From Clostridiales bacterium (GTDB lineage: Bacteria; Bacillota; Clostridia; Christensenellales; Pumilibacteraceae): a DNA stretch of 64,000 bases. Below are positions 1,289-19,829 of this stretch, one piece after another. Both the position numbers and the translations under genes were made by a program. The notes beneath the pieces are model-generated. The model was not told the origin of the DNA. It was given only the letters and a program-made list of their open reading frames with translations, and ran no database searches. The stretch is taken from positions 18,226-82,225 of the forward strand of contig JAFLVD010000002.1 in NCBI GenBank assembly GCA_022508485.1, written 5' to 3'. Position 1 is the stretch's first letter. Each line of letters starts with the position of its first letter.

Positions 1289-1496
1289 ATTATAATTCCT
1301 TTTCGTTTGTTAAAACAATTAAACAAAAATCTTGCTCATCGTGAAGTTTTACGGATGTCTACGATCGTATTTTACGATTATCAGAAAGTATAGAATAATT
1401 TATATTAATTATAACATAATTCTATATTTTTTCAAAGCTGTTTAAATATAAATAAAGAGTTTTAAACTGCGCTTATATGGCTTCATCTTAAAGTTT

Positions 1497-3023: not shown

Positions 3024-3031
3024 TTGAGTAG

Positions 3032-4804: not shown

Positions 4805-5789
4805 TATCAATCTCCTTAAAAAACTGCGATACTTTTTCAATATTGCATTCGCTATTATTACGCAAAACAACTACATTGTGATATCTATTAAATTTCTCTT
4901 TATATGAATCTTCATCCCATTTTCTAAAGGCAAATATAACTACAGTTAAAGTAGGATTAAGTAAAGCTCTTTCTACTATTGTTCTTATATGTTCATCGTT
5001 AAACGAAAAACCATATACGAGTAATAAAGAATTCCTTTGCTCAAGTTCATTCCCAAATATTCTTAATTGATCATAATAGTTCGCATTTAAAACTGTTGTG
5101 TTAAATTTTTCTTTATTGGGATTAATAATCAAAAACTCTTTTTCATAAACTTGCATAAACTCATCATCATTTTCCAAACATTCTTTAACTCTCTCAATCT
5201 TTTTTAAACAATTTTCATAAGTTATGCCTACGTCCGTTTGCGTCCAATTCAAAGATCCATGTAATTTTAATAAATTTGCGGTGACTATTTCTGTTGATTT
5301 ATGCGCTAAAGCGCTTGTCTTTTTTATAACTCTTCCAAAATTAGTCGTAGAATACAATGGATTAAGGCGTCCAGAAAACCCATCTGAATATTCTATTCTG
5401 TTACACTCCAATGATTGTTCTATAAGCACATCATAATTAGTGGTAAAAATGTTAAACATTTTATGCAAAACCGAACTATGCCGTTTGTCTAATATATTTT
5501 TAATTGAATTTAAAAAATAATCTCGATATTTTTTATTAGCGTCTAACTTTTCTTGATAAAGAATCGGTAAAATGCTATTATTAAAAAATTCTTTTTCCAA
5601 TATAATCTTTTGTCTTATATCACCATTATCAATAGCTCTTGTTAATCGTTCTTCAAAATCATCTAAAACTTTTAAAAACGGCATACTAAATCCAGCACCC
5701 AACAATAAACTTATATTGTTAGATGAAAGACATTTTATCAAATATGATTTCACAACTTGCCGTTGCTCTTCTATATTATAAATTCTCAT
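4791..5789 (-). CDS. SIR2-family (SIR2_2-type) NADase-like protein.
   Basis: LLLGAGFSMP (GAGxS), IFTTNYDVLIE (TTNYD) and LLKLHGSLNW motifs. ATG 5789 follows an AAGGAG SD. The upstream part of the track ORF overlaps the XRE gene. Confidence 0.85.
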   Translation of the reverse strand: MRIYNIEEQRQVVKSYLIKCLSSNNISLLLGAGFSMPFLKVLDDFEERLTRAIDNGDIRQKIILEKEFFNNSILPILYQEKLDANKKYRDYFLNSIKNILDKRHSSVLHKMFNIFTTNYDVLIEQSLECNRIEYSDGFSGRLNPLYSTTNFGRVIKKTSALAHKSTEIVTANLLKLHGSLNWTQTDVGITYENCLKKIERVKECLENDDEFMQVYEKEFLIINPNKEKFNTTVLNANYYDQLRIFGNELEQRNSLLLVYGFSFNDEHIRTIVERALLNPTLTVVIFAFRKWDEDSYKEKFNRYHNVVVLRNNSECNIEKVSQFFKEIDNDIE

Positions 5790-5817
5790 CAAAAATCTCC
5801 TTAAAAACAAATAAGTG

Positions 5818-6060
5818 TTAATCAATCTCCAAGTCGGGATTCTCAAAAATTGGATCATCAAAGAATTGAGCAGCTGTCATACCAAGTCCACGGACAATCT
5901 GCATAACCGTTTTAAGATTTACACTCTTGTTCCTTTCGCCCATTAATGTTTTCATTGTGTTATGCGGCATAGCTATATCTCGCTCAAGTCGATACTGCGA
6001 CATACCCTTTTCACCCAATATGTTGCTTATTCTTAACGCTACTGCTGTACTTAATTTCAT
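5818..6060 (-). CDS. XRE-family helix-turn-helix transcriptional regulator (80 aa).
   Basis: LGEKGMSQYRLERDIAMPHNTMKTLMGERNKSVNLKTVMQIVRGLGMT is a typical Cro/C1 HTH. ATG 6060 has a GAGG SD. It lies 28 nt upstream of SIR2 on the same strand. Confidence 0.85.
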   Translation of the reverse strand: MKLSTAVALRISNILGEKGMSQYRLERDIAMPHNTMKTLMGERNKSVNLKTVMQIVRGLGMTAAQFFDDPIFENPDLEID

Positions 6061-6070
6061 ACTTGCCTCT

Positions 6071-6191
6071 ATGGTTGTAATTACAACTCCATTGTATCAA
6101 AAAAAATTTTTACTGTAAGGACATAATTACAACCATAAATGATTGTATTTATCATTCATTACTGCTATAATATGGTTGTAATTGCAACCAT
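6071..6191. promoter_or_regulatory. Divergent control region with three copies of an ATGGTTGTAA/TTACAACCAT operator-like palindrome, plus a candidate plus-strand promoter.
   Basis: Site 1 is 6071-6088 (core GTTGTAATTACAAC is a perfect 14-bp palindrome). Site 2 is a half-site, TTACAACCAT, at 6127-6136. Site 3 is 6172-6191, ATGGTTGTAATTGCAACCAT (19/20 palindromic). Candidate promoter: -35 TTGTAT at 6143-6148, 17-nt spacer, -10 TATAAT at 6166-6171, abutting site 3. Confidence 0.5.
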
Positions 6192-6204
6192 AGAGAGAGT
6201 AGTA

Positions 6205-6636
6205 ATGAAAATATGCTGTGCGTCAGGTAATCGTCCACACAAGTTTCCATGGGAGTACGGCGAAGAAAAAGAACATGAAAAATGCCTCGCAGATTTAGCA
6301 AGACAGATTGAAGAACTAATAAGATACGGCCATACATATTTCATATCAGGTGGCGCGCTCGACGTAGATCAGGACTTCGCGGAAACTGTACTTCGTGCAA
6401 AGAAAATACGCACAAATATCAAGCTTAAAATTGCAGTTTCTTGCAAAAAACAAGATGAACGTTGGAGTGAATCCGACAAGTCCCGGTATATAACCATTAT
6501 TGATAAAGCTGACAAAGTAACTTTCCTATCTGAGCATTACACACGATACTGTATGCAAAAACGCAACGAATACATGGTAGATAAATCAAATCTCAATCTA
6601 GTTTATTGGAACGGCGAAGAAAAAGGCAGTACATGA
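6205..6636 (+). CDS. DUF1273 / YpsA-like SLOG-superfamily protein (143 aa).
   Basis: From ATG 6205: MKICCASGNRPHKFPW...YFISGGALDVDQDFAETVL...IAVSCKKQDERW. This parallels the B. subtilis YpsA layout (GYKP...ISGQLGVE...). The track start at 6139 lies upstream of the predicted promoter. Confidence 0.65.
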   Translation: MKICCASGNRPHKFPWEYGEEKEHEKCLADLARQIEELIRYGHTYFISGGALDVDQDFAETVLRAKKIRTNIKLKIAVSCKKQDERWSESDKSRYITIIDKADKVTFLSEHYTRYCMQKRNEYMVDKSNLNLVYWNGEEKGST

Positions 6637-6897: not shown

Positions 6898-7369
6898 GCA
6901 GTGAGTTAGAATTTACTCGCCCATATTTAATTATAATGATATATGTATTTTAAATATAAATATATATCGTTTTTTACGCGTAAAAGGACTGGAAGTCCGT
7001 CATTAAAACACAAACTCCCCAATCAGTAAGTAATCGGGGAGATTGTGGGGCGTGGGGATTTGAGGGTCTGTCAAAAAGCGCAAGATATAGTATCTAATAT
7101 ATCATCTATATACAATATTTTGTATTTTTCGCTTTTACCCTCTTCCTCTGACTCCGTCACTTCGAAAGGTTGAAGAGTTTCGCCTGCTGCTAACACTATA
7201 TCTGCCGCGAATCAGAATTTTCTACTAAAACATATAGTATTTAGTTTTTGGGGAATAAATTTGGCAGTAAATTTGGGAGAGACTCCACAATTTTCTCTCA
7301 ACTCACCCTGAAACCAAAATTATATGCAACCGTTTTCATTAACAAAAGCTTCCATAGTCAGTAATATTG

Positions 7370-7915
7370 CTATATGTTATCTCCGTTTGCTACCATAATC
7401 ATTCCGACATTCACCTCTACTGATTTACTATCGTTTTGGTTAAACCAATCTTCTATGCAATCTTTATACCGGTCGGTTAAGCAAATTATACGCTGATTTG
7501 CCGAACCGAGAATGCGCCTTTTACTCTCCGCTTTGTCGGCAATATATGCGCCGTCCAGCACGACGTCGCAGCCGCGCAAAATATCTTTGACTTCGTCGTA
7601 AAGCCTGCCTGTAAAAGATATTACGCCCAGTCCGAGATTATGGATTGCTTCGGTGAGATGAGGTAAGTTTTGCTGTAGAGTAGGCTCTCCACCCGAATAT
7701 GTCACACCATCTATCCCGAACTCGTCTTTTGCTTCGGCGATGATTTTAACAAGCTCATCAAGAGTTAAAAGATTTTTCGGCACAAGCGGTTGATAGTCTG
7801 GATTACAACATCCTTTGCAATGAATATTGCAGCCCTGAAACCAAATGCACAACCTCTTGTACGGGCCTTCTACTTCGGTACACCGATTGATGCTTGCAAT
7901 ATTAAACTTAATCAT
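7370..7915 (-). CDS. NrdG / activating-enzyme-like radical-SAM protein (181 aa), last gene of the eight-gene operon.
   Basis: EVEGPYKRLCIWFQGCNIHCKGCCNP (CxxxCxxC cluster) and GVTYSGGEPTLQ (GGEP SAM motif). ATG 7915 overlaps the stop of the upstream ATPase gene by 8 nt. The track start at 7927 is TTG. Confidence 0.8.
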   Translation of the reverse strand: MIKFNIASINRCTEVEGPYKRLCIWFQGCNIHCKGCCNPDYQPLVPKNLLTLDELVKIIAEAKDEFGIDGVTYSGGEPTLQQNLPHLTEAIHNLGLGVISFTGRLYDEVKDILRGCDVVLDGAYIADKAESKRRILGSANQRIICLTDRYKDCIEDWFNQNDSKSVEVNVGMIMVANGDNI

Positions 7916-9740
7916 TGTCAAATTCAAAATGCAGCTTATCTTTCACTACACTTACAACTATTTTTGCACCTCTGAACGATAACAAATCTTGCTTATTTTC
8001 AAACATAAACATAGCGAGCTCGTCCAAAAGCTTATCATTGATTGCATTGAGTATATCGCGACCGCCCTTACTGCTATCTGTTCCTCCTAAAATATAATTG
8101 ATGAATTTTAACTCGTCGGCGAATTCCAAATCTATACGGTATTTTTCGGCGATTGCGCGTTGTACGGGACGAAGCTTGGAGCGCGCAATCTTTACGCTGA
8201 ACTCTTTATCTTTGATAAAGTTGAATGGAACGATATTGCTGTATCCGATACGCCCTAAAATTTCGGGACGCTTGATTTCGTTGTCAAAATAGTTCTTTAC
8301 AATCTTGATAAACTCTTCGGCTATCTCTTCGTTAGATCCGCTCGACGACACTTCCGAAGCGCCGAGATTGGATGTGAATATTATGACGCTTTCGCTGAAA
8401 TAAACCGTTTCGCCTTTGCTATCGGTCAAACGCCCGTCTTCGAGGATTTGCAGAAAAATGTCCAATATGCGCGGATTGGGTTTTGCCGCCTTTTCAATCT
8501 CGTCAAACAGTATAATACTGAACGGTTTTTCCTTAACGGCATTTGTCAGTTGTCCGCCCTCTTCATAGCCTACATATCCCGGAGGCGCGCCGATAAGCTT
8601 TTGGTCGCTGTTCTCCTGCGCATACTCGGACATATCAAAGCGAATACAAGCCTGCTCGTCTCCGAACAGGAATTTTGCAAGGGCTTTGCTGAGCTCGGTT
8701 TTACCCACGCCAGTAGGTCCGACAAAGAACAGCACACCTTTGGGCGCGGAACGACTGGACGATTTGTGAATTCCTGTCAATCCCATATATGCCTTAACTA
8801 CGACTTTTTCTATCTTCTCGATAGCTTCGTCTTGCCCGACCACGCGCTCGGAAAGAATCTTTTTAATGTTCTTTACTGCTTTATAGTCAAGCTTTTCCCA
8901 AGGATTGTCTTTCTCTCCGTACTTAAACAGAAGATATAATTGTTCAAACGGCATTTTACCTTCTTTGCGAGAAAGCCTGGCAAGCTGAATAATCTCACGA
9001 TTTGTAAAATCGTCGAGCATATCGATATACTCGTTCTTTTTATCGCAGGTCATAAGCGTTTCGCCCGGCTTTAGCTTTACTTCAAAACCGCTCTCGATCT
9101 TTTCCATCATTTTTTCGCGTTCTTCTCTATCCGGTTTGGAAAGCGTCAGGCAAGACACTTCGGCATTGCTCTGATAGAAAGAAATCGGAAACATAGCAAG
9201 TTTGCTTGTTACAAGCACAATTGTACTCTCGTTTACTTCCGAGGAAAGATAATCGACTTTTTTATCTTTTATGGCTTTGCCGAGAAGAGTCAATAGCTCG
9301 CGCTCGTCCGGCGGCAACACGCCGCCCGTCGAAAACAAATAGTCCGCCCAGTTCAACACAAACGCCGTTTTGCGATTGGGCTTTTTTAAGTTTTTAAATA
9401 TAATATTGAAAATCTCGGCAGTATCCTTAAAAAGTCCGCTGCCCGTTTTTTCTTCTTTTTTGGTATCTTCGTCGTCGTCAAACGAATATGCGTCGCCCTC
9501 TATCTCCACCTCGTCTATGACGGAAAGTCGAGATATATCACCGTCCACGCCGTCGATGCGATCCCAATACAGCACATCGTCAAAATCCATGGACTTCAGC
9601 ATATCCATAAGATATTGCTTTAAATCGACGATTTGCTTCTTTTCGTTGAGATAAACATCGCCAACATTACCCTCGACTATTACGCATCTTTTGATGCCTA
9701 TTTCGCGTCTTAATCTGTTAAATGTAGTGATAAGTGCCAT
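7908..9740 (-). CDS. ClpA/ClpB D2-like AAA+ ATPase with a degenerate N-terminal AAA-like half (610 aa).
   Basis: VVGQDEAIEKI; Walker A FFVGPTGVGKTELSKALA; GAPPGYVGYEEGG; Walker B SIILFDEIEKA; sensor-1 VIIFTSNLG. The N-terminal half has only VIVEGNVGDVY and FVLNWADY in place of Walker A and B. AAGGAG SD before ATG 9740. Confidence 0.8.
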   Translation of the reverse strand: MALITTFNRLRREIGIKRCVIVEGNVGDVYLNEKKQIVDLKQYLMDMLKSMDFDDVLYWDRIDGVDGDISRLSVIDEVEIEGDAYSFDDDEDTKKEEKTGSGLFKDTAEIFNIIFKNLKKPNRKTAFVLNWADYLFSTGGVLPPDERELLTLLGKAIKDKKVDYLSSEVNESTIVLVTSKLAMFPISFYQSNAEVSCLTLSKPDREEREKMMEKIESGFEVKLKPGETLMTCDKKNEYIDMLDDFTNREIIQLARLSRKEGKMPFEQLYLLFKYGEKDNPWEKLDYKAVKNIKKILSERVVGQDEAIEKIEKVVVKAYMGLTGIHKSSSRSAPKGVLFFVGPTGVGKTELSKALAKFLFGDEQACIRFDMSEYAQENSDQKLIGAPPGYVGYEEGGQLTNAVKEKPFSIILFDEIEKAAKPNPRILDIFLQILEDGRLTDSKGETVYFSESVIIFTSNLGASEVSSSGSNEEIAEEFIKIVKNYFDNEIKRPEILGRIGYSNIVPFNFIKDKEFSVKIARSKLRPVQRAIAEKYRIDLEFADELKFINYILGGTDSSKGGRDILNAINDKLLDELAMFMFENKQDLLSFRGAKIVVSVVKDKLHFEFDND

Positions 9741-9751
9741 TATCAGTCTCC

Positions 9752-10864
9752 TTATTTCTTATTTTTGTTGGTGTTTGTTGCTTGATATTTCATCGTAGCA
9801 ATTTTATCGGGATTGCTCCAAATTTCTGTCTGTTTGGTAACGCGAATGCCGTACACTTCTTCCAAATCGTGCATAAACGGCTCAATATCCTTTTGGCAAG
9901 CCTGACCTTCATATCCGTGAAAATCGTAAATAAATCTGCCATCGAGGAAAATTCGAAACTCTGCTTTCTCTCCGCTCGCCTTTAAAGCGACTAAAATCAC
10001 TTCGTTTGTATCGCGTTTGATTTTTATGTTCTTCTTATCTACAATAAATCCGCGCTGCTTAATCGCATCCATGATAATTTTAAGAGATTTTTGCCGAACC
10101 TTTTCGCCGACAATTTCGGCCGTAGCGCTCCGGCGCATTGCCGCAAGCTTTTCGCGAGCCGTGCCTTGAGCCCCCTCTGTCACTTTTCCAAGCGTTTCCG
10201 GCGCCACTCGAGACGCTTCCAATTCGGCGCGAATTTTGGCGCGTTCCTCTTCGTAACGGGTCTCATAAGTTTGATTTACTGTTTGCTCCATAAGCTGCTT
10301 GCCGGCCTTAATGAGAGCATCACCGATAAGCGTATTATCGCGAATGTATGCAAGAAATGCAAACTGCCGCAAAACCTCGTCGCTTATCCCACCCAACACG
10401 GCTCGTGTGCGCGAATCGACGGTTACCACTCCGCTGTTCTGCTCGCGCAATTTGCGTTGATAATCCCCTATACTATCTTTAAGCAGCGCTTCAAGCAAGC
10501 TTTCGAATTCCATCAACCGTTGCGACGCGAGAGTATCGACTTTTTGCTGTAATTGCTCCGCTGCCCTGATAGTGTCATTACGGTGCGCGTAGCGTGCTTC
10601 CATGTCGTCCATTCGCACCGAGCCCTTTTTAGCGTCGGTTTCCGCTTTTTTGCTCACATCGTTAATTTGATTGTCAAGCAAACTACGTTCCTGTCTAATT
10701 ACATCGGCAAGCTGTTGAACTTGCTCTGTTGCAATACGAGACGAAGATGCCTCTATCCTTGCAATCATGTCGTCCAATTCTTGCAGTCTTACCCTTGCAA
10801 CTTCGCAAACACTATTGCATTGAATAGCTATTTGCTGATAATCTACTTGAACCTGCCGACTCAT
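9752..10864 (-). CDS. Coiled-coil protein (370 aa) with a small C-terminal alpha/beta domain. Function unknown.
   Basis: ATG 10864 forms an ATGA overlap with the stop of the upstream gene. It is rich in long heptad-like E/Q/R/L segments (RLQELDDMIARIEASS..., EERAKIRAELEAS...). The track start at 10900 is less likely. Confidence 0.65.
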   Translation of the reverse strand: MSRQVQVDYQQIAIQCNSVCEVARVRLQELDDMIARIEASSSRIATEQVQQLADVIRQERSLLDNQINDVSKKAETDAKKGSVRMDDMEARYAHRNDTIRAAEQLQQKVDTLASQRLMEFESLLEALLKDSIGDYQRKLREQNSGVVTVDSRTRAVLGGISDEVLRQFAFLAYIRDNTLIGDALIKAGKQLMEQTVNQTYETRYEEERAKIRAELEASRVAPETLGKVTEGAQGTAREKLAAMRRSATAEIVGEKVRQKSLKIIMDAIKQRGFIVDKKNIKIKRDTNEVILVALKASGEKAEFRIFLDGRFIYDFHGYEGQACQKDIEPFMHDLEEVYGIRVTKQTEIWSNPDKIATMKYQATNTNKNKK

Positions 10865-13059
10865 TTCAATCCTCCTACCATAAATACTAAATCGCGCCAT
10901 TTTTCTATCGTGGCCTTATCGAAAGGTATCTGTGCGGCTCCCGGATGTTGGAATCCGTTTCTGCACTTACGAAGGATGTGCAAGTCGTCGGCCTGCGGTT
11001 TTGTGATAAGCTTTTTGCTTAGTGCGTCGTTTATGGTGTCGTTGACAGGCGTCGACTTGTCTAACTGCAATTTTTTGCACAAATCGTATTGCAATCTTAT
11101 AAGCAAATCGCAAACTGCGTCCTTATATTTGCCCCTGGAAATAAAATCGTTTATGTACTTTTCGGTTATATTTTCGGGATGGAACGCCGCCGTCCGCTCG
11201 ATAGACAAAAGCTCGTGTATAGGCTTGAATATTGCAAGGTAACGATCGTACTTTTCGTATTCATTACCCGCAAACTGCCTGTATTTTTGTATCGTTTTCG
11301 AAGTGTTTAAGAGCGTTCCGTAGGCGTTGAAAAACGCGTCGTTGTTGTAGTCGTCCTTTAACGTATATTCGGCGCTGTTTGTGACACCGAGCATATCGCA
11401 CAGCTTCCACAGATTAACCCGAACTGTCTTATACTTACTTGCAAGCTCGGTGTCGGAATTGATCGACGTGTTTTCCAGCACGGCATTCATAAACGTTTCT
11501 ATCACATTGGCAACCGAAAGAATTTCCATCTCCATATCGGGCAATGCCGAATTAAGCGCCTCGTATGCGATCTCGCGCGTTTCGGTTTTGCAAATATTAT
11601 CCGAAAATCTGCGCACGTATTCGATATTCGGGATTCTCAGAGCCGTTTTAAGCGGCATCAAAACCGTGTTTTTGTAAATGACGTTTTCTACCTTAACCTC
11701 GCTTACGCTTCTGTTGTACAGCTCAGTTGCAGCCTTTGCAAAATATTCAGTCCAAGGCTGATGATTTTTGAACGCCGAATTAATCTTTAACAGCAGCTCT
11801 GTTTGCTCGTCCGCCGTTTTAACCGACTTAAGCTTTTTGTCTATAAATTTTCCGAAGTATTCGGCGCCTAAACAGTCTGCGACATAGGTGACTATACGCC
11901 CTACCTCGTCGTCAAACGGCTTTTCGCAATATTGATCGTACAGGCTTTCGACAATTCCTCTAAAAATTTCATCATCAGCCTTGCTTTCTATCAAAAGCGG
12001 CAAAGTAAATGTGTCGCCAAAGTTTTTGCACGACATAGCCATGTTGACCGCACTAAACGCTCTGCATCCCGACTTATCCAAAAGCGCACAATACGCGTGT
12101 TCATCGATTTCATCCAAAAGTCGGCAAGAGAGATCTAAATCAGCACAAATAGCGTCGTTACGATCCACCGCCGTCCCTCTCTGTAAAAACACAACACATG
12201 GGCGCTTTGCTTGCTTAGACAAATCTTCGGGTAGATATAACGCCGTCAAATTGGACACGGTCGCAATACCCACCGTCGGAATGCGGCCTACGGACTCTGG
12301 AAATTTAAATTTGTTTTTCATTACCATTCCGCTTTCCATGATAGCGGACGAATAGTACTTATCGAAAAACGCCCTTTCCGCAGTGGTTGCAAAAGTAAAC
12401 TCTATGTGCGAAGGATATATATTTAGGGTGATATTCTCTTCCGAACGAACGTGCATTTTTTGCGGAGGATCTGTCTCGAATGAAATCATGCGTTCCTCCG
12501 CCTTTAACCCCACCTTAGTAGGATTTACGTTGAGATAATCCCCTAAGCCGCTTATGTCTATATCCACATGGTCCAAAAACTCCTCGCCCAAAAAACAGTT
12601 TGCAATCGGAGAGTATGTCATGTCGGAGTACACATCAAAGCGATTAGTTACAGGGCTGTAAAAAATATCCTTAGCCTTTTCCTTTTCCACGCCTGTGGGG
12701 ATTGCCCCCTCGCTGAACAGCTTTTTGCCTTTTGGTGTAATGGCGACCTCGTTCAGCTTGATTTCCGCAAAATACTTTGGATTGGAAAAATGCGACGCCG
12801 CATACTTGGATTTTACTATTTCGGTATTGATAAGCCCCTCTAACTCCCTGCCGAAAAGGCTGTGGAGCTCGGTGGGTATGCCGAATTTTTTCAACGCCTC
12901 GGAAAAACGCATATCGGACTTTTGCTTGTCTATAAGCTCGAGCAAGATGTAGGCTATACCGGAGGCCTTGCGCACCTCGTTATACTTGATGCGCGTCTTG
13001 TAAATCAACAGCGGAAAAGGACATTGCGTTTTTATCTGCTTTATTAACTTCTCTTCCAT
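10861..13059 (-). CDS. 732-aa protein with a C-terminal HEPN-like domain (putative RNase effector).
   Basis: The C-terminus reads ...DDLHILRKCRNGFQHPGAAQIPF.... RNGFQH is an Rx4H motif encoded at 10945-10962, checked codon by codon. An AGGAGG SD sits inside the 3' end of the helicase gene, with a 1-nt gap to the helicase stop. Confidence 0.55.
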   Translation of the reverse strand: MEEKLIKQIKTQCPFPLLIYKTRIKYNEVRKASGIAYILLELIDKQKSDMRFSEALKKFGIPTELHSLFGRELEGLINTEIVKSKYAASHFSNPKYFAEIKLNEVAITPKGKKLFSEGAIPTGVEKEKAKDIFYSPVTNRFDVYSDMTYSPIANCFLGEEFLDHVDIDISGLGDYLNVNPTKVGLKAEERMISFETDPPQKMHVRSEENITLNIYPSHIEFTFATTAERAFFDKYYSSAIMESGMVMKNKFKFPESVGRIPTVGIATVSNLTALYLPEDLSKQAKRPCVVFLQRGTAVDRNDAICADLDLSCRLLDEIDEHAYCALLDKSGCRAFSAVNMAMSCKNFGDTFTLPLLIESKADDEIFRGIVESLYDQYCEKPFDDEVGRIVTYVADCLGAEYFGKFIDKKLKSVKTADEQTELLLKINSAFKNHQPWTEYFAKAATELYNRSVSEVKVENVIYKNTVLMPLKTALRIPNIEYVRRFSDNICKTETREIAYEALNSALPDMEMEILSVANVIETFMNAVLENTSINSDTELASKYKTVRVNLWKLCDMLGVTNSAEYTLKDDYNNDAFFNAYGTLLNTSKTIQKYRQFAGNEYEKYDRYLAIFKPIHELLSIERTAAFHPENITEKYINDFISRGKYKDAVCDLLIRLQYDLCKKLQLDKSTPVNDTINDALSKKLITKPQADDLHILRKCRNGFQHPGAAQIPFDKATIEKWRDLVFMVGGLK

Positions 13060-13060
13060 A

Positions 13061-16000
13061 CTACTTTCCTCCTATGGTGTCGCGCATGGGAATGATATCT
13101 CGTGCCGGAATTATTTTTCCCTTAAAATCTATCGTTGAAATAATTTCTTTGTAGACGTGGAAATTAAGTTTGCCAGCACCGCACCCGTCCATATCCGGTA
13201 AATCGATTATGCCGTAATCGGACAAGAATTTTCTGGCTCCAACTACAATAAGCAGCTTGCGCGCCCGAGACAGCGCCACGTTGATGCGCTCGAACTTTTT
13301 AAGAAATTCCAGGTCGAATTTCTTTCCGGGTGCAGGGTTTCTGACCATGGAGAGAATTATGATATCTCGCTCGTCGCCTTGAAAGTCGTCAACTGTGCTT
13401 ATTACCAGTTTTTCGTCTTGCTTGCCCGAAAAGTTGCCGAACTGCTTATTTTTGCGTTTTTTCTTAATAAGAGAAGCCTGGTCGCCGTATGTACAAATTA
13501 CGCCCACGCTCGGCCGCTCATCTATGCGCCGATCCTTGTTTACTTTGATTTTGCCTGTCCTAATAAGCTCTCCGCTTGCCGCATCAATTTGCCGCAAAAG
13601 CTCGATTGCAACCTGTGCTTCCTGCTCGTTGGACTTGGATGTGCTGCCATCGTCGGCGCTGGATTCCCTTTCGTCGCAATCGACAAAGTAAATGTGATGC
13701 TCGGGATCGATAACGGTATTGCCGTTGATGCGGACTGTAAGGTTGTGCTGCTTTTCGTTGTCTTGTTGCGGAAATCCCACTTGCAAGCCTTTTTGACTAC
13801 CGCCGTAAAAATGGTTGAAAACCTCCATTATGTGGCTGTGGCAACGGTATTGCTTGTTGAGCATGACCTTAAAGTCATCGGGTACTTCCTCGTAAAGTTT
13901 CTTAAAGAAGCACTCTTCGTATAATTCGGTGTACTTTTTGTTGATACTTTGATTGATAATGTCGTCGTTCAACCCCTCAAAGTCTTCTTCTCTCATGTGG
14001 CGCAAATCGTACATGGGCGGCAGCTGTCTGTGGTCGCCCACAAGGATGACCGTTTCCCCGTACAAAATGGGAATGAGCAAATCGAGGAAAGAGGACTTGG
14101 ACACCTCGTCGATAATGACCACATCAATCCCTTGCGTGCGTATGTTTACATCCTCTATGCCGTACCGACCGAGCTCTTCTAACTGCTGTCTCGTAAATCT
14201 GTCGCGACTGGTGCAGGTAATACCGAACACATTAGCCTTATCGTACAGAGCGCGAGTGTACTCTTGTCTGTCCTCGTCCAAGATTTCTTGCTGCGCAAGA
14301 TATTTGCATATTCCACGGTACATCGGAATTTTTACTGCGTTTTCTGCTTGCGTGGATTTATAGTCGCGTTCCAACTTTTTCCACTCGTCTGCAATAATGG
14401 AGAACGCCTTTCCCATATCGTTCGGATCGTACTCACACACAATATCAAAGTCTTGCATAAACCGCGAAACGCTCTGCTTTAATGCGGAATTAAGCTCAGA
14501 ATATTCCACAAGCGTTTGATCCTCGCCAAGATCCTCAAGCTTTTGTTTCAGTTTGTTGATGTTTATCTGTTTTTCTCTTATGTCGCTATCCAGCCGGTCT
14601 TGCTGCGCGAGGATAGATTTCATGTCCTCTTCTATTCTGTCCTTAATCTCGCTTACAGTGCGCTGCACTTCTATTTTGAATGCCGTTAACTCGTCGGGCA
14701 GCTTTTTAAGCTTATCTTTATCTCCGGCGATTTGCGGAAGAACGGAAAACACGACGGTATCCGAAATGTCGAACTTGCTTGTCTCCTGCGCCCGACGCAA
14801 TTCGCCTGCAACAGACATCAATTCTTTTTGATATTTTTTATATTGCTCAAAATAATCGTCACCTTCCGTTGGCGGCTCGTCCGTTTCGGGGTCGCGCAGT
14901 TCGGAAAGAATTTCCTTTAGCTCTCGTTGTCTGTTTTTAAGCCTAATCGTTTTATCATTGTCATCGGACAACAGTGCGGCAAGTTCTTGCTTTACAGCGT
15001 TCACATCCAATTTGATTAGCTCACCCACCTTTTCCTTGGACAGCTTGTTAAAGCAAGAATATTTTTTGAGTAAAAAATCGATTGCGTCCGCAAAATCTGT
15101 TAAGTACTGCTCTTTGACGTCTTCTCCGGCAAAGCGGTATGTTTCGATATATTTAATCGTACGCCTAAACTGCTCTATCTCGTCACACACAACGGATAAT
15201 TCCCCACGCAAGTTATCTAGCATTTCATTAAGCTTATTTATATCTGCGGAAACGGAGCGCATCTCCTTTTGCACCTGTGCGACCTGTCCTTCCAATCTCA
15301 AAACCCTATCGTAGTCAAGGCGCAGTTTTTTCATCATTTCGCCAAAGGTTGCCTTTGTTTCCTCAAAATGTTCAAACCTATCCACCTGTTTTTCCAGATT
15401 GCGGCTGATATTAAGATAGAAATTATCCACCAATCTTTCAGGGCTGTAATTTGTTTCTTTGCCGTTTTGTGACGGAATAAGCCTAAGCGGTCGTATTTCC
15501 GGTATTTTAGGTAGCCTTTCAAACACATTGTCGATTGCCTTATGCGTTTCGGAGGAAACCAACACCTTTTTGCCGCGCTTACACAGCTGTGCGGCTATCT
15601 CGGCTATAACCTGCGTCTTTCCGGTGCCGGGCGGACCCTGCAAGAGAAAGATACTCTCGCTCGCGAGCGCCTTTTGTACGGCGAGTTTTTGCCTGTCGTT
15701 AAGACTTTCCAAGCACCAATCTATATCGTCCGCCGTCCTCTTTGTACTGCCGAGCGATTTAGCATCAAATAGATATGCCGGCAAATACGGATTCTTTACA
15801 TAACCGCCCATAAATGCGACGAGCGCACGCTCCTGCCTTTCTATCTTAGTCCGCTCAGCGCGACTGTCGTATGTAAGATAATGCGCATCTACTGTAGCTA
15901 TTTCCTTTCTAAGTCCGGAAAGAGTTTTGTTGCTGTCATCCGGACGGAAGTAAACACTGTAGCGGCGTATAGTTTCATTTTCGATTTTTACGGCTATTTC

Positions 16001-17692
16001 TTGATCGCGCTTTTGGGCAAGATCCTTTTGTGCCGTCGCCTTTTCGGCGCTAATCGCACCTTCGTATTGGGTTTGTAATTGATGCTCTTTTTCGCGTTTG
16101 ACTTTTTCCAACTCGGCCTGCTTGGCAATATAAAGGCTCTTGCGCTTGTTTGCAATCAACTTATTATTTCGTGCGATATAAAAATCCCGAAGATTCAGTT
16201 CTTTCGCCGCATAAGCACAGTCTTCTTCGTATTTATATTTTAATGCGGCAAGGCTTTCTTGTTGCTTTGCAATTTTCACTTTATCGCCATCTTTTTTATA
16301 TTTGACGAGTTGTTTCTCAACTTCCTGCCGCTCTCTGTCGTATTCGGATTTAAGCGGCTTGGTAAGCTCGGTGACGGCACTTTCGAATTCTTTTTGAACG
16401 TCTCTATCATGGTTTTCGCGCACATCGTCGTCCAGCGCGTCATTAAGCCCACGTTCGTAATCGCTTAACTGACGAGTATATTTTGCCGTTATTGTGGGCT
16501 CTTGCGCAGCCATAAACTTTGTAAGCTCCGCAAAAATAACGGCGACATACTTGTCGTCAATCGCTTTTTCCGCCGCCTTGCGGCTTCTTTCATACTTGCT
16601 TACTATCGCCTCGCAGTCCGGTTCGATATCGGTAAATGTAAACAAATATCGCTCGCCCAAAAGATATTGGTCGAACTTATACCCCTTGGGCAAATTGCCG
16701 TTGTCATCAAATTTCGGCTCGGTGGGCGATAGACCCATCGCATTCTTTGTGTAGCGTTGCAAATCCGCCTCGTACTTAGGCTTGCCTTTGCCGAACTTTC
16801 CGATAGTTTCGCTAAGCACCTGTTTGCGGTTTTTTTCTATGTCGACGCGAATGAGCGGAAAGCTCTCCGCGCCGCTCACGTCCTTTGACAAAATAACCTG
16901 CTCACTGCGAGCAAACGCCGAAATGCCGTCGAGAAGCAGCGGAGCATAATCGTCCTCCCTCCGCCTATACGCCTCTCTGGAAATCATATAAGCATCACAC
17001 ACCTCCGCAGTGTAGATGCGCTCGCACTTTTCCGATTGCTTAGTGAGATAATATTTTCTGAATTCTATGTACTTTTGCCAGGTATCGAAGACGCTTAAAA
17101 CCTTCTTGTACTCAGTTTTAGGCACCGGTGATAAATCCTGAAAAAGCTCGTTCACAAAGTCGTTTGTAAGCACAGATTCATGCAACTCTCTTGTGCCATA
17201 ATCCGGAACAGATGCACCCGTACGCAGTGTTGTCCGCGAAAAAGCACAAGCCGCATTGCATTCTACACTCTTTTCCCCGAACTTTTTCATCGACTTGTCG
17301 ATGATGTCAATACCCTTAACCGAAACGGAAATAACACTACCGAGCATGACATCGCCGATTAGTATAAGCTCGTAGTTTTCGGGTAGCACGCCGCGAGAAT
17401 ATGGGGCCCCGGTAGGACGAATAACCATATTATTAATGTAGTTATTTTCTCTACCGCTTCTGTTGACAACGGTGCTGATTTTTCTGTCAAAACTCGGCAG
17501 TGATATAAAGTATTCCGAAACGCTGTACGGACAAAACATATCGATAAAATCGACAAGCGTTTCCGGAAAATTGCCGTCGAACCTTTGACGCAACACCCCA
17601 TACTGCTCAGTGAGCGACGTGTTGTACAAGTCGTTGGGATTGCGACTACCAGCTTCCAAATTGTCCACAAAATTCAAATATAGATACGCCAT
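13061..17692 (-). CDS. Giant (1543 aa) Upf1/DNA2-like SF1 helicase (AAA_11/AAA_12 type) with a ~685-aa N-terminal extension and a coiled-coil insertion.
   Basis: Motif I FLLQGPPGTGKT (15614-15637, residue ~686); motif II VVIIDEVSK (DE at about residue 1195, nt 14105-14110); VGDHRQLPPM; LNKQYRCHSHI; STVDDFQGDERDIIILSMVR; INVALSRARKLLIVVG. Confidence 0.85.
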   Translation of the reverse strand: MAYLYLNFVDNLEAGSRNPNDLYNTSLTEQYGVLRQRFDGNFPETLVDFIDMFCPYSVSEYFISLPSFDRKISTVVNRSGRENNYINNMVIRPTGAPYSRGVLPENYELILIGDVMLGSVISVSVKGIDIIDKSMKKFGEKSVECNAACAFSRTTLRTGASVPDYGTRELHESVLTNDFVNELFQDLSPVPKTEYKKVLSVFDTWQKYIEFRKYYLTKQSEKCERIYTAEVCDAYMISREAYRRREDDYAPLLLDGISAFARSEQVILSKDVSGAESFPLIRVDIEKNRKQVLSETIGKFGKGKPKYEADLQRYTKNAMGLSPTEPKFDDNGNLPKGYKFDQYLLGERYLFTFTDIEPDCEAIVSKYERSRKAAEKAIDDKYVAVIFAELTKFMAAQEPTITAKYTRQLSDYERGLNDALDDDVRENHDRDVQKEFESAVTELTKPLKSEYDRERQEVEKQLVKYKKDGDKVKIAKQQESLAALKYKYEEDCAYAAKELNLRDFYIARNNKLIANKRKSLYIAKQAELEKVKREKEHQLQTQYEGAISAEKATAQKDLAQKRDQEIAVKIENETIRRYSVYFRPDDSNKTLSGLRKEIATVDAHYLTYDSRAERTKIERQERALVAFMGGYVKNPYLPAYLFDAKSLGSTKRTADDIDWCLESLNDRQKLAVQKALASESIFLLQGPPGTGKTQVIAEIAAQLCKRGKKVLVSSETHKAIDNVFERLPKIPEIRPLRLIPSQNGKETNYSPERLVDNFYLNISRNLEKQVDRFEHFEETKATFGEMMKKLRLDYDRVLRLEGQVAQVQKEMRSVSADINKLNEMLDNLRGELSVVCDEIEQFRRTIKYIETYRFAGEDVKEQYLTDFADAIDFLLKKYSCFNKLSKEKVGELIKLDVNAVKQELAALLSDDNDKTIRLKNRQRELKEILSELRDPETDEPPTEGDDYFEQYKKYQKELMSVAGELRRAQETSKFDISDTVVFSVLPQIAGDKDKLKKLPDELTAFKIEVQRTVSEIKDRIEEDMKSILAQQDRLDSDIREKQININKLKQKLEDLGEDQTLVEYSELNSALKQSVSRFMQDFDIVCEYDPNDMGKAFSIIADEWKKLERDYKSTQAENAVKIPMYRGICKYLAQQEILDEDRQEYTRALYDKANVFGITCTSRDRFTRQQLEELGRYGIEDVNIRTQGIDVVIIDEVSKSSFLDLLIPILYGETVILVGDHRQLPPMYDLRHMREEDFEGLNDDIINQSINKKYTELYEECFFKKLYEEVPDDFKVMLNKQYRCHSHIMEVFNHFYGGSQKGLQVGFPQQDNEKQHNLTVRINGNTVIDPEHHIYFVDCDERESSADDGSTSKSNEQEAQVAIELLRQIDAASGELIRTGKIKVNKDRRIDERPSVGVICTYGDQASLIKKKRKNKQFGNFSGKQDEKLVISTVDDFQGDERDIIILSMVRNPAPGKKFDLEFLKKFERINVALSRARKLLIVVGARKFLSDYGIIDLPDMDGCGAGKLNFHVYKEIISTIDFKGKIIPARDIIPMRDTIGGK

Positions 17693-17731
17693 ATTTTGTT
17701 TCTCCTAATTCCTACTCATCGAAAAACTATT

Positions 17732-18622
17732 TTAAAATTTTCTTAGCTCCGCCAACTTAGTCTTGAAAGTGTCGTATGCGCGGCTGAAGCTTGGTGGTAA
17801 CACTCCGCACATGGCCGCCAACTGATTGTCCTTCGGAACTTCCCCTTCATTTTTATAAAAATCGTACACTTCGTCGGTAAAGAATGCTGTTCGTCGCTTT
17901 ATCTTATGTATCCTCTCATCATCACCGTCAAGCACCGATATAAGTAGCGCCGTAAGCTTGTAGCGTACCGTGCGCTGCGTGTCCTTTCGGCATGCGGCAT
18001 AAGCCTTTTCGATTTCGATGACGAGCTCAACAAGACTGTCCTCTTCTATTATCCGCTCGCCCAAGTCTCCTTTAACCACCACACTGTCAAACAAGTCAAT
18101 CTCACCGTCGTCGGTTGTCGTTATGTTGCTTATTGGTGCCGCCTCGTAATTTGCGATTAACGCCTTACGGACGACGTCGATAGCGATGTTAAACCGCTCG
18201 GATATTCGCTGTTGCACAAATTCGTCGTACACGTCCAAGCCCTTGCTATCGGCGTATCTGAACACTGCTCTAACAATGGCGTCCTGCTTTTTACCGATGT
18301 TTACGCCAATTCGCCTTTCGTCAATTTGGCGTTTTGCACGAACTCTTTTTATGTTGGTGGAAAGACTGCTTATAAAATAATTTAAAAAAGGCATCGCCCT
18401 GTCGTAACCGGCAAGACAGAGCTTGACCGTCTGCATAAATTCAACACCGAATTCGGACAGTATGCCGTCGCCAAAAGCAAACGCATCGGCGTACTCGTAA
18501 AGATCTCCGGTAAACCGACGAAACGCGGCGGCGTATTCCGCCTCCATTCCGCTCTCCTCTCGCATCAAAAGGAATGGCGAAGAATTTATTGCGTTTTCCA
18601 ATTGTTCTTTTGTACGCTTCAC
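17732..18622 (-). CDS. Possible divergent sigma-70-family/HTH regulator (296 aa).
   Basis: PFLNYFISSLSTNIKRVRAKRQ resembles ECF region 2 (F..WL..I..N...D..R). The C-terminal NQLAAMCGVLPPSFSRAYDTFKTKL resembles a region-4 HTH. The start is GTG 18622, 10 nt after the upstream stop. Resemblance by eye only. Confidence 0.3.
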   Translation of the reverse strand: MKRTKEQLENAINSSPFLLMREESGMEAEYAAAFRRFTGDLYEYADAFAFGDGILSEFGVEFMQTVKLCLAGYDRAMPFLNYFISSLSTNIKRVRAKRQIDERRIGVNIGKKQDAIVRAVFRYADSKGLDVYDEFVQQRISERFNIAIDVVRKALIANYEAAPISNITTTDDGEIDLFDSVVVKGDLGERIIEEDSLVELVIEIEKAYAACRKDTQRTVRYKLTALLISVLDGDDERIHKIKRRTAFFTDEVYDFYKNEGEVPKDNQLAAMCGVLPPSFSRAYDTFKTKLAELRKF

Positions 18623-18632
18623 AGGTTCCCGC

Positions 18633-19256
18633 CTAAAAATCTATAATCTCGTCTAAAGCTTTAAGCGCTTCTTTACTCGATGAAAACTCCATGGTATTAG
18701 TAAGATTATTAAGATAATACAGCGGCGATAAGTCAAAAATTATAGGGTTTTGCGGCACCTTTTCTCCGCATACAAAATCGACCTTGCCGTACACGATATA
18801 CTTGATTTCCGAACCGAAAAACTTTTCCGCAAAGTTCAAAACCGAAAACATTATAATTGGCAGAGGCTTAGGCCCATATGTGATATCGGCTATTATCTGT
18901 GCGCCATCCTCAAGCTTTGCAGCCATATCGCGGAACAACTTTTCGTGGACTTCGCGCGTTTCGATAAACGGAGTGGTTATCGTAACATACTCAATGTGGG
19001 CGCCGATCTTTTCGTTGATCGCATTCAGCTCTTTTTGGAACAGTCCGGCATTGACCGCACTGTTGCCATCCACATCGGTTTTGCTAAGCAGTACGATTTT
19101 AATGTCATCTTCTTTCTTCAGTGTGCGAGCCAGCACGGCATTTATAGGAAAAGCGACAACTCCATCGTATTCCAAAGCCTTGTTACCGTCGACACGGTAC
19201 CTAAGATCGAACAATTGCTTTTTCATTGGCAAATCGCTAAAAACTATCTTTTTCAT
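18633..19256 (-). CDS. CARF-like Rossmann protein of the DxTHG / TM1812-like type (207 aa).
   Basis: IIADITYGPKPLP sits where CARF/Csx proteins carry DxTHGFR. YGKVDF....PIIFDLSPL resembles the conserved YGAFE...PI.DLT tail. An IKIVLLSKTD strand follows the first helix. GAGGTG SD before ATG 19256. Confidence 0.4.
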   Translation of the reverse strand: MKKIVFSDLPMKKQLFDLRYRVDGNKALEYDGVVAFPINAVLARTLKKEDDIKIVLLSKTDVDGNSAVNAGLFQKELNAINEKIGAHIEYVTITTPFIETREVHEKLFRDMAAKLEDGAQIIADITYGPKPLPIIMFSVLNFAEKFFGSEIKYIVYGKVDFVCGEKVPQNPIIFDLSPLYYLNNLTNTMEFSSSKEALKALDEIIDF

Positions 19257-19276
19257 GTTTTCACCTCACTATGCTG

Positions 19277-19693
19277 TTATCCGGCAAACGCCATTTCCGC
19301 AGCGGCATATTTTTGCAACAACTTGTTTTTGATGTTGTTAAGGCGGATGCGTGCCTGCCTCTTTTTGTCCATTTCGCCGCGGTTCTTTTCCGGCCTGATC
19401 TCGTCCTCTATGTACTCCTCAATTTGATCGAGACATTCCCGTTGCTGTTGAATGTTGACGCACGAGTAATACATATTTTGGCGGCGCTCTATCCGGCCTG
19501 CATCATATTCCTCTTTGTCAATCTGCCTAACCGACAATATGGCGTCCTTGTGATCGTGCTTGACACGCGGCATCTGTCTTACAATGGCAGCAGCCTCGCT
19601 GCCCGTATATGCGCGAACATAAAACGTTCCCCTAAAGAATCTGCCCCTGCCAACGTGTCCGCACTTTGCTTGTACTTCGTAAAAATTCTTCAT
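19277..19693 (-). CDS. Small basic protein (138 aa), first gene of the operon. Function unknown.
   Basis: MKNFYEVQAKCGHVGRGRFFRGTFYVRAY.... ATG 19693 follows AAAGGAG. A 20-nt gap separates it from the next gene. Confidence 0.6.
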   Translation of the reverse strand: MKNFYEVQAKCGHVGRGRFFRGTFYVRAYTGSEAAAIVRQMPRVKHDHKDAILSVRQIDKEEYDAGRIERRQNMYYSCVNIQQQRECLDQIEEYIEDEIRPEKNRGEMDKKRQARIRLNNIKNKLLQKYAAAEMAFAG

Positions 19694-19800
19694 TGTTGTT
19701 GCTCCTTTTTATTTGATACTCATATATAGAGCCCATTTAATCGGGAGTTAACACTTTATAAAAAATTTCCAAAGAATTTTTCGCATCATGCTCTAACAAT

Positions 19801-19829
19801 ATTATATCATTCTCATGCAACAAAAGCAA
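19801..19829 (-). promoter_or_regulatory. Candidate sigma-A promoter (extended -10) for the eight-gene operon.
   Basis: On the minus strand: TTGCTT (19829-19824), 17-nt spacer, TGaTATAAT (-10 at 19806-19801). It lies about 100 nt upstream of ATG 19693. Confidence 0.5.

Follow-up and report, generated by a model that had tools for sequence, protein, structure and literature searches.

An eight-gene operon that joins a predicted CARF-sigma switch to a helicase, HEPN, unfoldase and radical SAM cassette

We have analyzed an operon of eight genes in a stretch of 64,000 nucleotides (nt) from a Clostridiales bacterium (contig JAFLVD010000002.1), hereafter called the window. The genes lie on the minus strand and are named g1 to g8 in the order of transcription. 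The operon probably comprises a CARF-sigma switch with its own private promoter, joined to an effector built from a helicase, a HEPN protein, an unfoldase and a radical SAM enzyme, and would probably serve in defense against phages. We describe here its gene content and the domain identities of its proteins, the strict synteny of a five-gene core (g4 to g8), the exchange of the genes that stand in front of that core, the homology of g3 to sigma factors, and the co-occurrence of a promoter-like motif with the sigma gene. The operon is real, non-random and mobile.

Results

Organization of the Operon

Eight open reading frames (ORFs) follow one another in a single direction, tightly coupled, from position 19693 to position 7370 (Table 1). 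A preliminary description of this DNA had placed eight co-directional genes between these limits, and all of them were found in the ORF listing. The intergenic gaps that it gave (20, 10, 39, 1 and 11 nt) agree with the ORF coordinates, from which its two overlaps, the ATGA at 10861-10864 and the 8 nt at 7908-7915, also follow.

Table 1. Genes and predicted transcription signals of the operon, in window coordinates
Feature	Positions	Strand	Description
σA-type promoter-like site	19801-19829	-	TTGCTT-17 nt-TGaTATAAT (extended -10); read directly in the sequence
Bipartite promoter-like motif	19718-19759	-	A-tract, TGTTAAC 19753-19747, 17 nt, CTATAT 19729-19724
g1	19277-19693	-	138-residue basic protein
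g2	18633-19256	-	207-residue stand-alone CARF protein
g3	17732-18622	-	296-residue divergent sigma-70-family protein, GTG start
g4	13061-17692	-	1543-residue Upf1-like superfamily 1 (SF1) helicase
g5	10861-13059	-	732-residue protein, C-terminal HEPN
g6	9752-10864	-	370-residue coiled-coil-like protein
g7	7908-9740	-	610-residue ClpB-D2-like AAA+ protein
g8	7370-7915	-	181-residue NrdG/PflA-like radical SAM enzyme
Intrinsic-terminator-like hairpin	7015-7041	-	11-bp stem then T-run, downstream of g8

The start of g6 was placed at 10864 and not at the ATG at 10900, because conservation within the family begins at M13 of the longer ORF. Similarly, the start of g8 was set at 7915 because its homologs are 181 residues long. 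For g3 the GTG at 18622 was chosen, since distant homologs resemble it from residue 3 onward. Shine-Dalgarno (SD)-like sequences were found upstream of g1, g2 and g4 to g7, and those of g5 and g6 sit within the preceding gene. The preliminary description had assigned the latter arrangement to genes 5 and 7. No SD-like sequence was seen for g8, whose translation relies on the overlap with g7.

The extended -10 promoter that had been noted upstream of the operon is present. This σA-type site was not listed by a consensus scan because its -35 element matches at three of six positions. It is identical in two close relatives (loci L006 and L008) and not conserved in a distant one (L033), and we regard it as a candidate for basal expression. 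At the other end of the operon, downstream of g8, the minus strand has its one strong terminator-like hairpin, which likely marks the end of the transcript. Within genes there are just a few hairpins, all short and weak; the preliminary description had noticed no internal terminator. The terminator hairpin falls within a block of 349 nt (7252-6904) that travels with the cassette in L008.

A Five-Gene Core Is Conserved across Phyla

In order to ask whether the genes recur together, one genome per species was scanned. The scan was seeded from a narrower g5 alignment, because the most diverse alignment had no sufficiently conserved stretch. This gave 58 loci, at every one of which the genes g4-g5-g6-g7-g8 occur in the same order and orientation wherever the contig reaches far enough, which answers in the affirmative the question raised earlier of whether the helicase, HEPN, ClpB-like and radical SAM genes recur as a block. 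Clustering of the whole g5 family at 90% identity gives more than 536 clusters, and at 50% identity 168.

Among the hosts are Clostridia, Lachnospiraceae, Ruminococcus, Christensenellales, Erysipelotrichaceae, Anaeroplasma, Malacoplasma, Bacteroidales/Bacteroidaceae and metagenome-assembled genomes (MAGs) of Cytophagales. The core is thus spread over Clostridia, Bacilli/Mollicutes and Bacteroidota, with a patchy distribution across phyla. From their names and sources the hosts appear to be gut or other anaerobes, which suits the oxygen-sensitive chemistry of radical SAM enzymes. In a Malacoplasma MAG (L052, 5482-9996) the core genes look fragmented under translation table 11; the five internal stops of the helicase are all TGA, and the helicase is intact under code 4, from which we conclude that the cassette is resident in a code-4 Mollicute.

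The eight-gene version lies in different neighborhoods in L006 and L008, the L008 copy adjoining AAA_21/RloB, reverse transcriptase and BREX genes. Mobile-element genes stand beside other copies of the core, namely PcfK/PcfJ in L001 and a serine recombinase in L003. A DEDDh gene flanks the core in both of these loci.

Proteins of the Core

The preliminary description had read g2 as a CARF/DxTHG-like sensor, g3 as a sigma-70-like protein, g4 as a 1543-residue SF1 (Upf1-like) helicase with Walker A lysine K692, g5 as a protein ending in RNGFQH (a HEPN Rx4H motif, codons 10945-10962), g7 as a ClpB-D2-like AAA+ protein and g8 as an NrdG-like radical SAM enzyme. These assignments are all borne out by the searches described in this section and the next, and the residue and codon numbers are correct.

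The helicase g4 matches the Pfam families AAA_11 (5e-28, in two stretches) and AAA_12 (8e-40). Its best match in PADLOC is MkoA (PDLC03920; 1.6e-88 over residues 395-1497), and its matches in the PDB are to SMUBP-2, SEN1, DNA2 and UPF1, split into residues 659-738 and 1188-1492. Some 500 residues separate the Walker A motif (686-693) from the DE of Walker B (1195-1196). This large helical insertion after Walker A is a putative coiled coil. An N-terminal region of about 650 residues extends beyond the recognized helicase part.

The following protein, g5, starts with a conserved region and ends in a HEPN domain; between these it has an alpha/beta middle part and a helical body. The HEPN motif is R700-N-G-F-Q-H705, with the codons of the R and H at 10962-10945. 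In an alignment of 52 sequences extending down to 18% identity, R697, R700, N701 and H705 are each at least 90% conserved and the pattern RxxRNxxxH is nearly invariant. No whole-protein family match for g5 was found in PADLOC 2.0, NCBIfam 20.0 or Pfam; the C-terminal domains of its relatives match DUF4145 (17 of 23 members), HEPN_RiboL-PSP (7 of 23), HEPN_Apea (6 of 23) and HepT (3 of 23). An AlphaFold2 (AF2) model of g5, with a predicted local distance difference test score (pLDDT) of 73, consists mostly of helices apart from an alpha/beta middle, and its N-terminus has a helix-helix-helix-strand pattern at pLDDT 60-80. Given the NrdG-like activase in the operon, we also considered the sequence CRNGFQH, 30 residues from the C-terminus of g5, as a glycyl-radical site. 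This was ruled out, since G702 is not conserved in distant members while the R, N and H are.

The N-terminal ~250 residues of g6 are long, helical and coiled-coil-like, and are followed by a conserved C-terminal alpha/beta domain with the pattern G.F.Y.F.GYEGQAC.KDI.PF...SNPDK. No family match was obtained in Pfam, PADLOC, NCBIfam or PHROG, and a g6 profile returned from the PDB weak noise of the coiled-coil type (keratin, lamin, designed bundles).

By far the most conserved protein of the cassette is g7, which scores around 1e-270 where g5 is only ~23% identical. It carries an N-terminal domain of about 280 residues that is very conserved and has no recognized fold, a Walker A motif (341-348), a GYVG pore loop (388-391), a Walker B motif (410-414) and a D2-small domain. 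The matches are to Pfam AAA_2 (7e-51) and ClpB_D2-small (4e-4), to NCBIfam ClpB (4.8e-75, profile positions 558-852) and to ClpC/ClpB structures (~1e-58). Those to PADLOC PDC-M37B (5e-33) and DolB (5e-20) cover the AAA+ core alone (residues 272-471). No ClpP-docking IGF/IGL tripeptide was noticed on reading the g7 sequence.

Lastly, g8 contains the cluster motif C29-x3-C33-x2-C36 and matches Pfam Fer4_12 (9.5e-24) and Radical_SAM (3.4e-12). NrdG is its best match in NCBIfam, followed here by PflA (3.6e-17), and in PHROG, where no matches were found for g1 to g7, it matches 'anaerobic ribonucleotide reductase small subunit' (1.4e-24). The matches to the prokaryotic viperin models of PADLOC are weak (4e-7 to 2e-5). 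By these matches g8 is a minimal radical SAM enzyme that resembles the glycyl-radical activases (NrdG/PflA), and no NrdG equivalog.

Proteins of the Front End

Over its full length (residues 1-205 against profile positions 1-203) g2 matches the PADLOC profile CARF2--CARF with 4e-79. It also matches Csx1 (1.4e-44; PADLOC) and TIGR02221, the TM1812 family (6e-10; NCBIfam). The DxT[HY]G motif of the CARF superfamily is present, and D124-I-T-Y-G-P-K is invariant in 14 sequences. More than 512 homologs were found, some of them named 'TM1812 family CRISPR-associated protein'. Pfam and PADLOC gave no effector domain besides CARF, and g2 is a stand-alone CARF of the Csx1/DxTHG type and a putative ligand sensor.

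Single-sequence searches of the PDB with g2 and g3 gave no match, and g3 of the window taken alone has no match in Pfam. A profile of the g3 family (45 members) matches solved sigma factors over regions 2-3: RpoS (3.8e-7), SigA (1.3e-6) and SigF (3.8e-5). Pfam Sigma70_r3 is matched by 15 of the 45 members, Sigma70_r4 by eight and r4_2 by two. An AF2 model of g3, made from five sequences, was set aside as too poor (pLDDT 52.6). On this profile evidence g3 belongs to the sigma-70 family, with homology in regions 2-3 and weaker matches in region 4.

The small protein g1 has no matches in Pfam, PADLOC, NCBIfam or PHROG. It carries the motif KCGHVGR...PRVKHDHKDAI, and its homologs lie 5' of the CARF gene in L070, L082, L092, L096, L114 and L135, so that g1 is a frequent, not obligatory, partner of the CARF-sigma pair. 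In other loci its position is taken by a GreA_N-domain protein, a DEDDh exonuclease or a SLOG protein. A g1-like gene (2e-23) also stands at L028 17880-18293, some 2 kb beyond the end of a core cassette that lacks the CARF-sigma front end; because of this copy, g1 may act independently of the pair.

A Promoter-like Motif Accompanies the Sigma Gene

Alignment of the regions upstream of g1-like genes revealed a bipartite motif of fixed spacing, AAAAAnTGTTAAGT-N16-CTATATA-N3-GT. The copy in the window lies between the σA-type site, 70 nt upstream of it, and g1. It is the only exact match in 64 kb, and also the only match (26.9 bits) to a position weight matrix that was made from 34 distinct instances of the motif.

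This matrix was applied to three sets of sequence. In 879 kb of CARF-sigma loci (L068-L153) it found 77 sites on the operon strand and three on the other strand. In 937 kb of core loci that lack the CARF-sigma pair it found none on either strand, and the same was true for shuffled sequence. Among the loci outside the training of the matrix, the window, L006 and L008 score 26.9 bits, and the three copies in L033, of which one immediately precedes g4, score 16-28 bits. Sites are found 5' of g1-like, CARF, helicase, VWA and other cargo genes. The motif at 19759-19718 is likely to be the cognate promoter of g3, as it strictly accompanies the g3 gene, has a sigma-like spacing and is biased in orientation, and it is better supported than the σA-type site.

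The Front End Is Exchangeable and the CARF-Sigma Pair Portable

Three alternative families of front end were found directly 5' of g4. A 175-residue helix-turn-helix (HTH)/coiled-coil protein occupies this position in 20 loci, and a protein of ~310 residues with no Pfam or PHROG match in a further 18 (for example L015 4422-5351 and L049 4561-5496). The third is the g1-CARF-g3 triad, present in the window, L006, L008/L009/L011 and L033. In five loci a small protein of ~85-95 residues, HTH-like in L049, is encoded upstream of the ~310-residue protein. In L033, a Bacteroidaceae copy, an additional protein of 301 residues (4391-5296) is encoded between the sigma-like gene and the helicase; near the N-terminus of this protein is an R-N-x-x-x-H motif (RCARNVYIH), its C-terminal segment is hydrophobic, and a copy of the promoter motif comes after it at 5293.

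The point of exchange can be located at the level of the DNA. Homology to a relative with the HTH-type front end (L012) starts exactly at the start codon of g4, 17692, in agreement with the split into front end and effector that had been proposed, the core g4-g8 traveling as a block. Homology to the eight-gene relatives spans 19951-7371 plus 7252-6904, and we therefore take the mobile unit of the window to be approximately 19951-6904 (~13 kb). As judged from these comparisons, the operon is a composite of a portable CARF-sigma regulator and a conserved five-gene effector block that are evolutionarily separable.

The regulator is found well beyond this cassette. Across 80 metagenomic loci and several assemblies, a g3-like gene nearly always follows the CARF gene within ~10-20 nt, and the pair precedes at least five types of conflict cargo. 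These are a TerY-P triad (VWA, PP2C, kinase) with an MkoA-like helicase of 1050-1150 residues and further proteins; an 835-residue MkoA-like helicase with a 473-residue protein; a SpoVK-type AAA ATPase with a helicase; MoxR with VWA; and the five-gene core itself, including a very divergent copy in L106. In L068, a 565-residue Sel1/TPR-repeat protein (11367-13064) encoded downstream of the CARF-sigma pair ends in LRNPASH, a possible HEPN Rx4H motif, and its gene is followed by a kinase gene, two VWA genes and a PP2C gene.

The upstream partners of the pair vary as well, and include g1-like, GreA_N-domain, DEDDh exonuclease and YpsA-SLOG proteins, the last with WYL proteins. A SLOG-like protein and a WYL regulator are encoded directly 5' of the pair in L073, L140 and L145. 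Encoded repeatedly just 5' of the CARF gene are proteins that carry a GreA/GreB N-terminal domain, and also DEDDh (RNase_T) exonucleases (L033 1827-2867, L074 3192-4262, L079 8196-10001 and L074 1983-3128). GreA proteins bind RNA polymerase, and the GreA-like coiled coil points to a second putative RNA-polymerase-binding factor in the module.

A phage origin of the CARF-sigma pair was considered and rejected, as there were no matches among the viral contigs of IMG/VR; a lone, unverified 'Bacteriophage sp.' contig carries the pair. None was found among the plasmids of PLSDB.

Surroundings of the Operon in the Window

The preliminary description had the operon abutting a SIR2-HerA locus, which we confirm (SIR2 1e-63, HerA 1e-136), and a putative nuclease-STAND gene; an ORF at 1497-3047 has only a weak match to DUF5677. 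The flanks otherwise contain SLOG and housekeeping genes. A YpsA/SLOG-family gene (6139-6636, plus strand; Pfam YpsA 1.2e-16) separates SIR2-HerA from the operon and is read in the other direction from the latter. SLOG domains bind nucleotides, and for this reason the gene might tie into signaling. The G+C content is 43-46% in the operon block, ~30-32% in the SIR2-HerA region (1-6000) and 44-54% in most other sequence of the window, steps which suggest that at least two separately acquired islands lie side by side.

Elsewhere in the window, tandem repeats at 36260-36390 (27/54 nt) and 37049-37145 (15/42 nt) lie within a minus-strand ORF (36173-37855) that probably encodes a repetitive, unrelated protein. 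Two adjacent minus-strand ORFs, 26059-28116 and 28001-29773, encode apparent paralogs of 685 and 590 residues whose C-terminal ATPase parts match PADLOC mad3 (1e-27 and 5e-22) and mad8; they are most likely ABC-type ATPases rather than defense genes. Searches of the window for Rfam families and tRNAs found none.

Discussion

A Model for the Function of the Operon

From these observations we infer a defense function, a ligand for the CARF protein, coupling of CARF and sigma, an RNA target, and roles for g1, g6, g7 and g8, which might combine in the following way. The σA-type site would give basal expression of the operon. On binding a nucleotide-type signal of infection, the CARF protein g2 would gate the activity of g3, which would direct RNA polymerase to the private promoter AAAAAnTGTTAAGT-N16-CTATATA at 19759-19718 and so set up positive feedback. 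The effector g4, an Upf1/CnuH/MkoA-like helicase with a long helical insertion, would load on RNA, and the HEPN RNase g5, working with it, would cut RNA, leading to restriction of viral transcripts or to growth arrest. The coiled-coil protein g6 would scaffold the complex. The unfoldase g7, with its intact pore loop, and g8 would form an obligate accessory pair; that the two remodel a protein, either a component of the complex or a target, and modify it by radical chemistry, is a rather doubtful part of the scheme.

A broader proposal, which we put forward tentatively and as a possibility, is that the CARF-sigma pair is a plug-and-play immune regulator of gut anaerobes. A stand-alone CARF would gate a dedicated member of the sigma-70 family, and this factor would recognize a private promoter, TGTTAAGT-N16-CTATATA, located before interchangeable conflict cassettes. 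The cassette of the window would then be an RNA-targeting helicase-HEPN machine that depends on a ClpB-type unfoldase and a radical SAM enzyme resembling glycyl-radical activases.

Several results weigh against these readings. Gating of g3 by g2 is conjectural, and g2 could instead be a ring nuclease. No Cas10, CD-NTase or mCpol was seen within 10 kb of the inspected CARF genes or in the flanks of the window, and the 64 kb contain no CRISPR-like repeat array. The weight matrix was trained on the CARF-sigma loci, so that the control sets and the held-out loci alone are independent evidence for the motif. For g5, a Foldseek search of the model against the PDB gave nothing significant, merely non-specific matches to helical repeats, and profile-profile comparison of its N-terminus with the MkoB/CnuE-like proteins encoded 3' of other helicases found no similarity except to the L106 ortholog. 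The match of g8 to NrdG (3.3e-23), best in NCBIfam as it is, scores 82.3 bits and lies below the cut-off of 126.1 bits, and no glycyl-radical substrate for g8 was found in the cassette, G702 of g5 not being conserved.

Alternative Explanations

The doubt about g2 can be framed as an explanation in its own right. The protein might be a ring nuclease or a sponge for cyclic oligoadenylate, acting as an off-switch or in anti-signaling, and g3, a dedicated sigma factor that acts constitutively, would simply insulate the cassette's expression. As a small, stand-alone CARF without an effector domain g2 would fit such a role, known ring nucleases are found among the stand-alone CARFs, a subject on which the literature includes PMC12409355 and PMC8284326, and no cyclase lies near the inspected CARF genes. 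However, the adjacency of the CARF and sigma-like genes, at 8-20 nt, is nearly obligate across very different cargos, which is unexpected for a free-standing ring nuclease, and the pair is usually far from type III CRISPR genes, the normal site of ring nucleases. We consider this explanation unlikely. The core could also be a module of mobile elements that serves other ends, such as RNA quality control or ribosome rescue under stress, addiction or exclusion, or inter-bacterial warfare. The PcfK/PcfJ and serine recombinase genes that neighbor some copies would be in keeping with this, as would the housekeeping relatives of Upf1-type helicases and ClpB-type unfoldases, and g5, g6 and g8 match no validated defense models. 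Yet the contexts are those of defense islands, with SIR2-HerA in the window and BREX, a reverse transcriptase and RloB/AAA_21 in L008; the distribution of the core is patchy across phyla; the same regulator serves TerY-P, Mokosh-like and MoxR-vWA conflict cargos; and the combination of HEPN with an MkoA-like helicase is typical of immunity systems (PMC11090510). We assign a non-defensive role of this sort a low probability.

A further explanation makes g8 the main effector. With the help of the unfoldase it would either produce a toxic or chain-terminating nucleotide in the manner of viperin, or cross-link or cleave a protein, for example the C-terminal domain of g6, into a toxin, leaving the helicase and HEPN protein as a sensor only. 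The strong conservation of g7 and g8, which exceeds that of the other cassette proteins (g7 retaining its ~1e-270 match where g5 has fallen to ~23% identity), the overlap of their reading frames and the invariant Gly and Cys residues in the C-terminal domain of g6 speak for it. So do the weak viperin matches of g8, but these span the generic radical SAM core only, the best matches of g8 being glycyl-radical activases, and its 181 residues leave out the C-terminal substrate domain present in viperins. Furthermore, the HEPN catalytic residues of g5 are under strong purifying selection. An effector role for g8 of this kind is very unlikely, and we prefer the CARF-sigma switch with an RNA-targeting effector as set out above.

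Implications

If the plug-and-play proposal were true, radical-based protein chemistry would be a step in anti-phage immunity. The five-gene core, found in at least three phyla, would add a branch to the immune systems that combine an Upf1-like helicase with a nuclease, such as Mokosh and CoCoNuT, a branch in which an unfoldase and a radical SAM enzyme stand in place of the McrBC or PLD partners, a combination without a described immune role. A CARF and a sigma factor with their own promoter would explain how cassettes that are unrelated and potentially toxic stay silent and are induced jointly, and the promoter motif could be used as a search handle for further cargo genes in gut metagenomes.

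Comparison with Known Systems

A literature search found no description that names the five-gene cassette or the CARF-sigma module, and neither PADLOC 2.0, NCBIfam 20.0, Pfam nor the searchable literature contradicts the earlier claim that the combination is undescribed. The operon is nevertheless not unrelated to everything known, since its helicase and HEPN pair has a described analog in CnuH-CnuE of the CoCoNuTs (PMC11090510). In Type II/III CoCoNuTs the Upf1-like helicase CnuH, in which a helical insertion follows Walker A, precedes a wHTH-HEPN (winged HTH-HEPN) effector (CnuE); coiled-coil partners and a CARF gene on the 5' side are frequent, and CARF-dependent transcriptional control is described for these systems (Bell et al., 2024, eLife; PMC11090510). 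The likeness to the window is considerable. The Upf1-like SF1 helicase g4 has the large insertion after Walker A that is a feature of CnuH; the RxxxxH HEPN protein g5 is encoded 1 nt after it, as CnuE follows CnuH; g6 is a separate coiled-coil protein like CnuA; and g7 is a partner NTPase of the AAA+ superfamily. However, the CnuB GTPase of the McrB type (NxD branch) is lacking. The ATPase g7 is of the AAA_2/ClpB-D2 type and matches the McrB model with just 1e-3, far below the cut-off, and there is no other NTPase gene. None of the eight proteins matches CnuC/McrC/DUF2357. A ClpB-D2-type ATPase and a radical SAM enzyme are found in their place, the cassette of the window has no TerY-P triad, and g2 is a stand-alone Csx1-type CARF accompanied by a sigma-70-like factor rather than an RtcR-like CARF-AAA-HTH activator of sigma54. 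In the absence of the defining McrB-type GTPase and McrC, the operon is not a CoCoNuT.

With Mokosh type I the operon shares a helicase whose best match is MkoA (1.6e-88) and which is followed by a nuclease-bearing partner. It differs in that g5 to g8 contain no PLD domain or MkoB match, in the length of g4 (1543 residues against the 1112 positions of the MkoA profile, some 430 longer), and in having three extra conserved genes, g6 to g8. Lacking the PLD partner, it is not a Mokosh system. The ClpB-like AAA+ protein recalls Dodola and PDC-M37 (g7 matches DolB with 5e-20 and PDC-M37B with 5e-33), but the match is confined to the AAA+ core (272-471), and neither DolA (DUF6414) nor any other component of PDC-M37 is present; the lack of DolA excludes membership of Dodola.

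The CARF-sigma pair has its own analogs. Unlike the ancillary proteins of type III CRISPR, g2 lies beside neither cas genes nor Cas10 in the window or in the inspected neighborhoods of its homologs, where no cas genes were seen. In the CalpL-CalpT-CalpS system (a SAVED-Lon protease, an anti-sigma factor and an extracytoplasmic function (ECF) sigma factor), cyclic tetra-adenylate (cA4) leads to release of the ECF sigma factor (PMC12751052). Csa3 is a CARF-wHTH protein, and RtcR a CARF-AAA+-HTH protein acting with sigma54 (PMC4012209; PMC11090510). The feature in common is a nucleotide-sensing domain coupled to a transcription or sigma factor that switches on downstream genes, a coupling that is proposed in the present case. 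In contrast to all three, the sensor g2 is a stand-alone CARF with no protease, HTH or AAA+ domain, and the CARF-sigma module would drive interchangeable, non-CRISPR cargos from a private promoter motif. Moreover, g3 has homology to regions 2 and 3 with weaker matches in region 4, and is not an ECF sigma factor like CalpS, and no recognizable anti-sigma factor accompanies it.

Finally, g8 resembles NrdG and PflA in its CX3CX2C motif, its minimal size and its best hidden Markov model matches. It differs from them in scoring below the family cut-off (82 against 126 bits), and in that no NrdD, Pfl or other glycyl-radical enzyme lies in or near the cassette. Taking these comparisons together, the operon is best filed as a new branch within the class of conflict systems that are built on an Upf1-like helicase and a nuclease.

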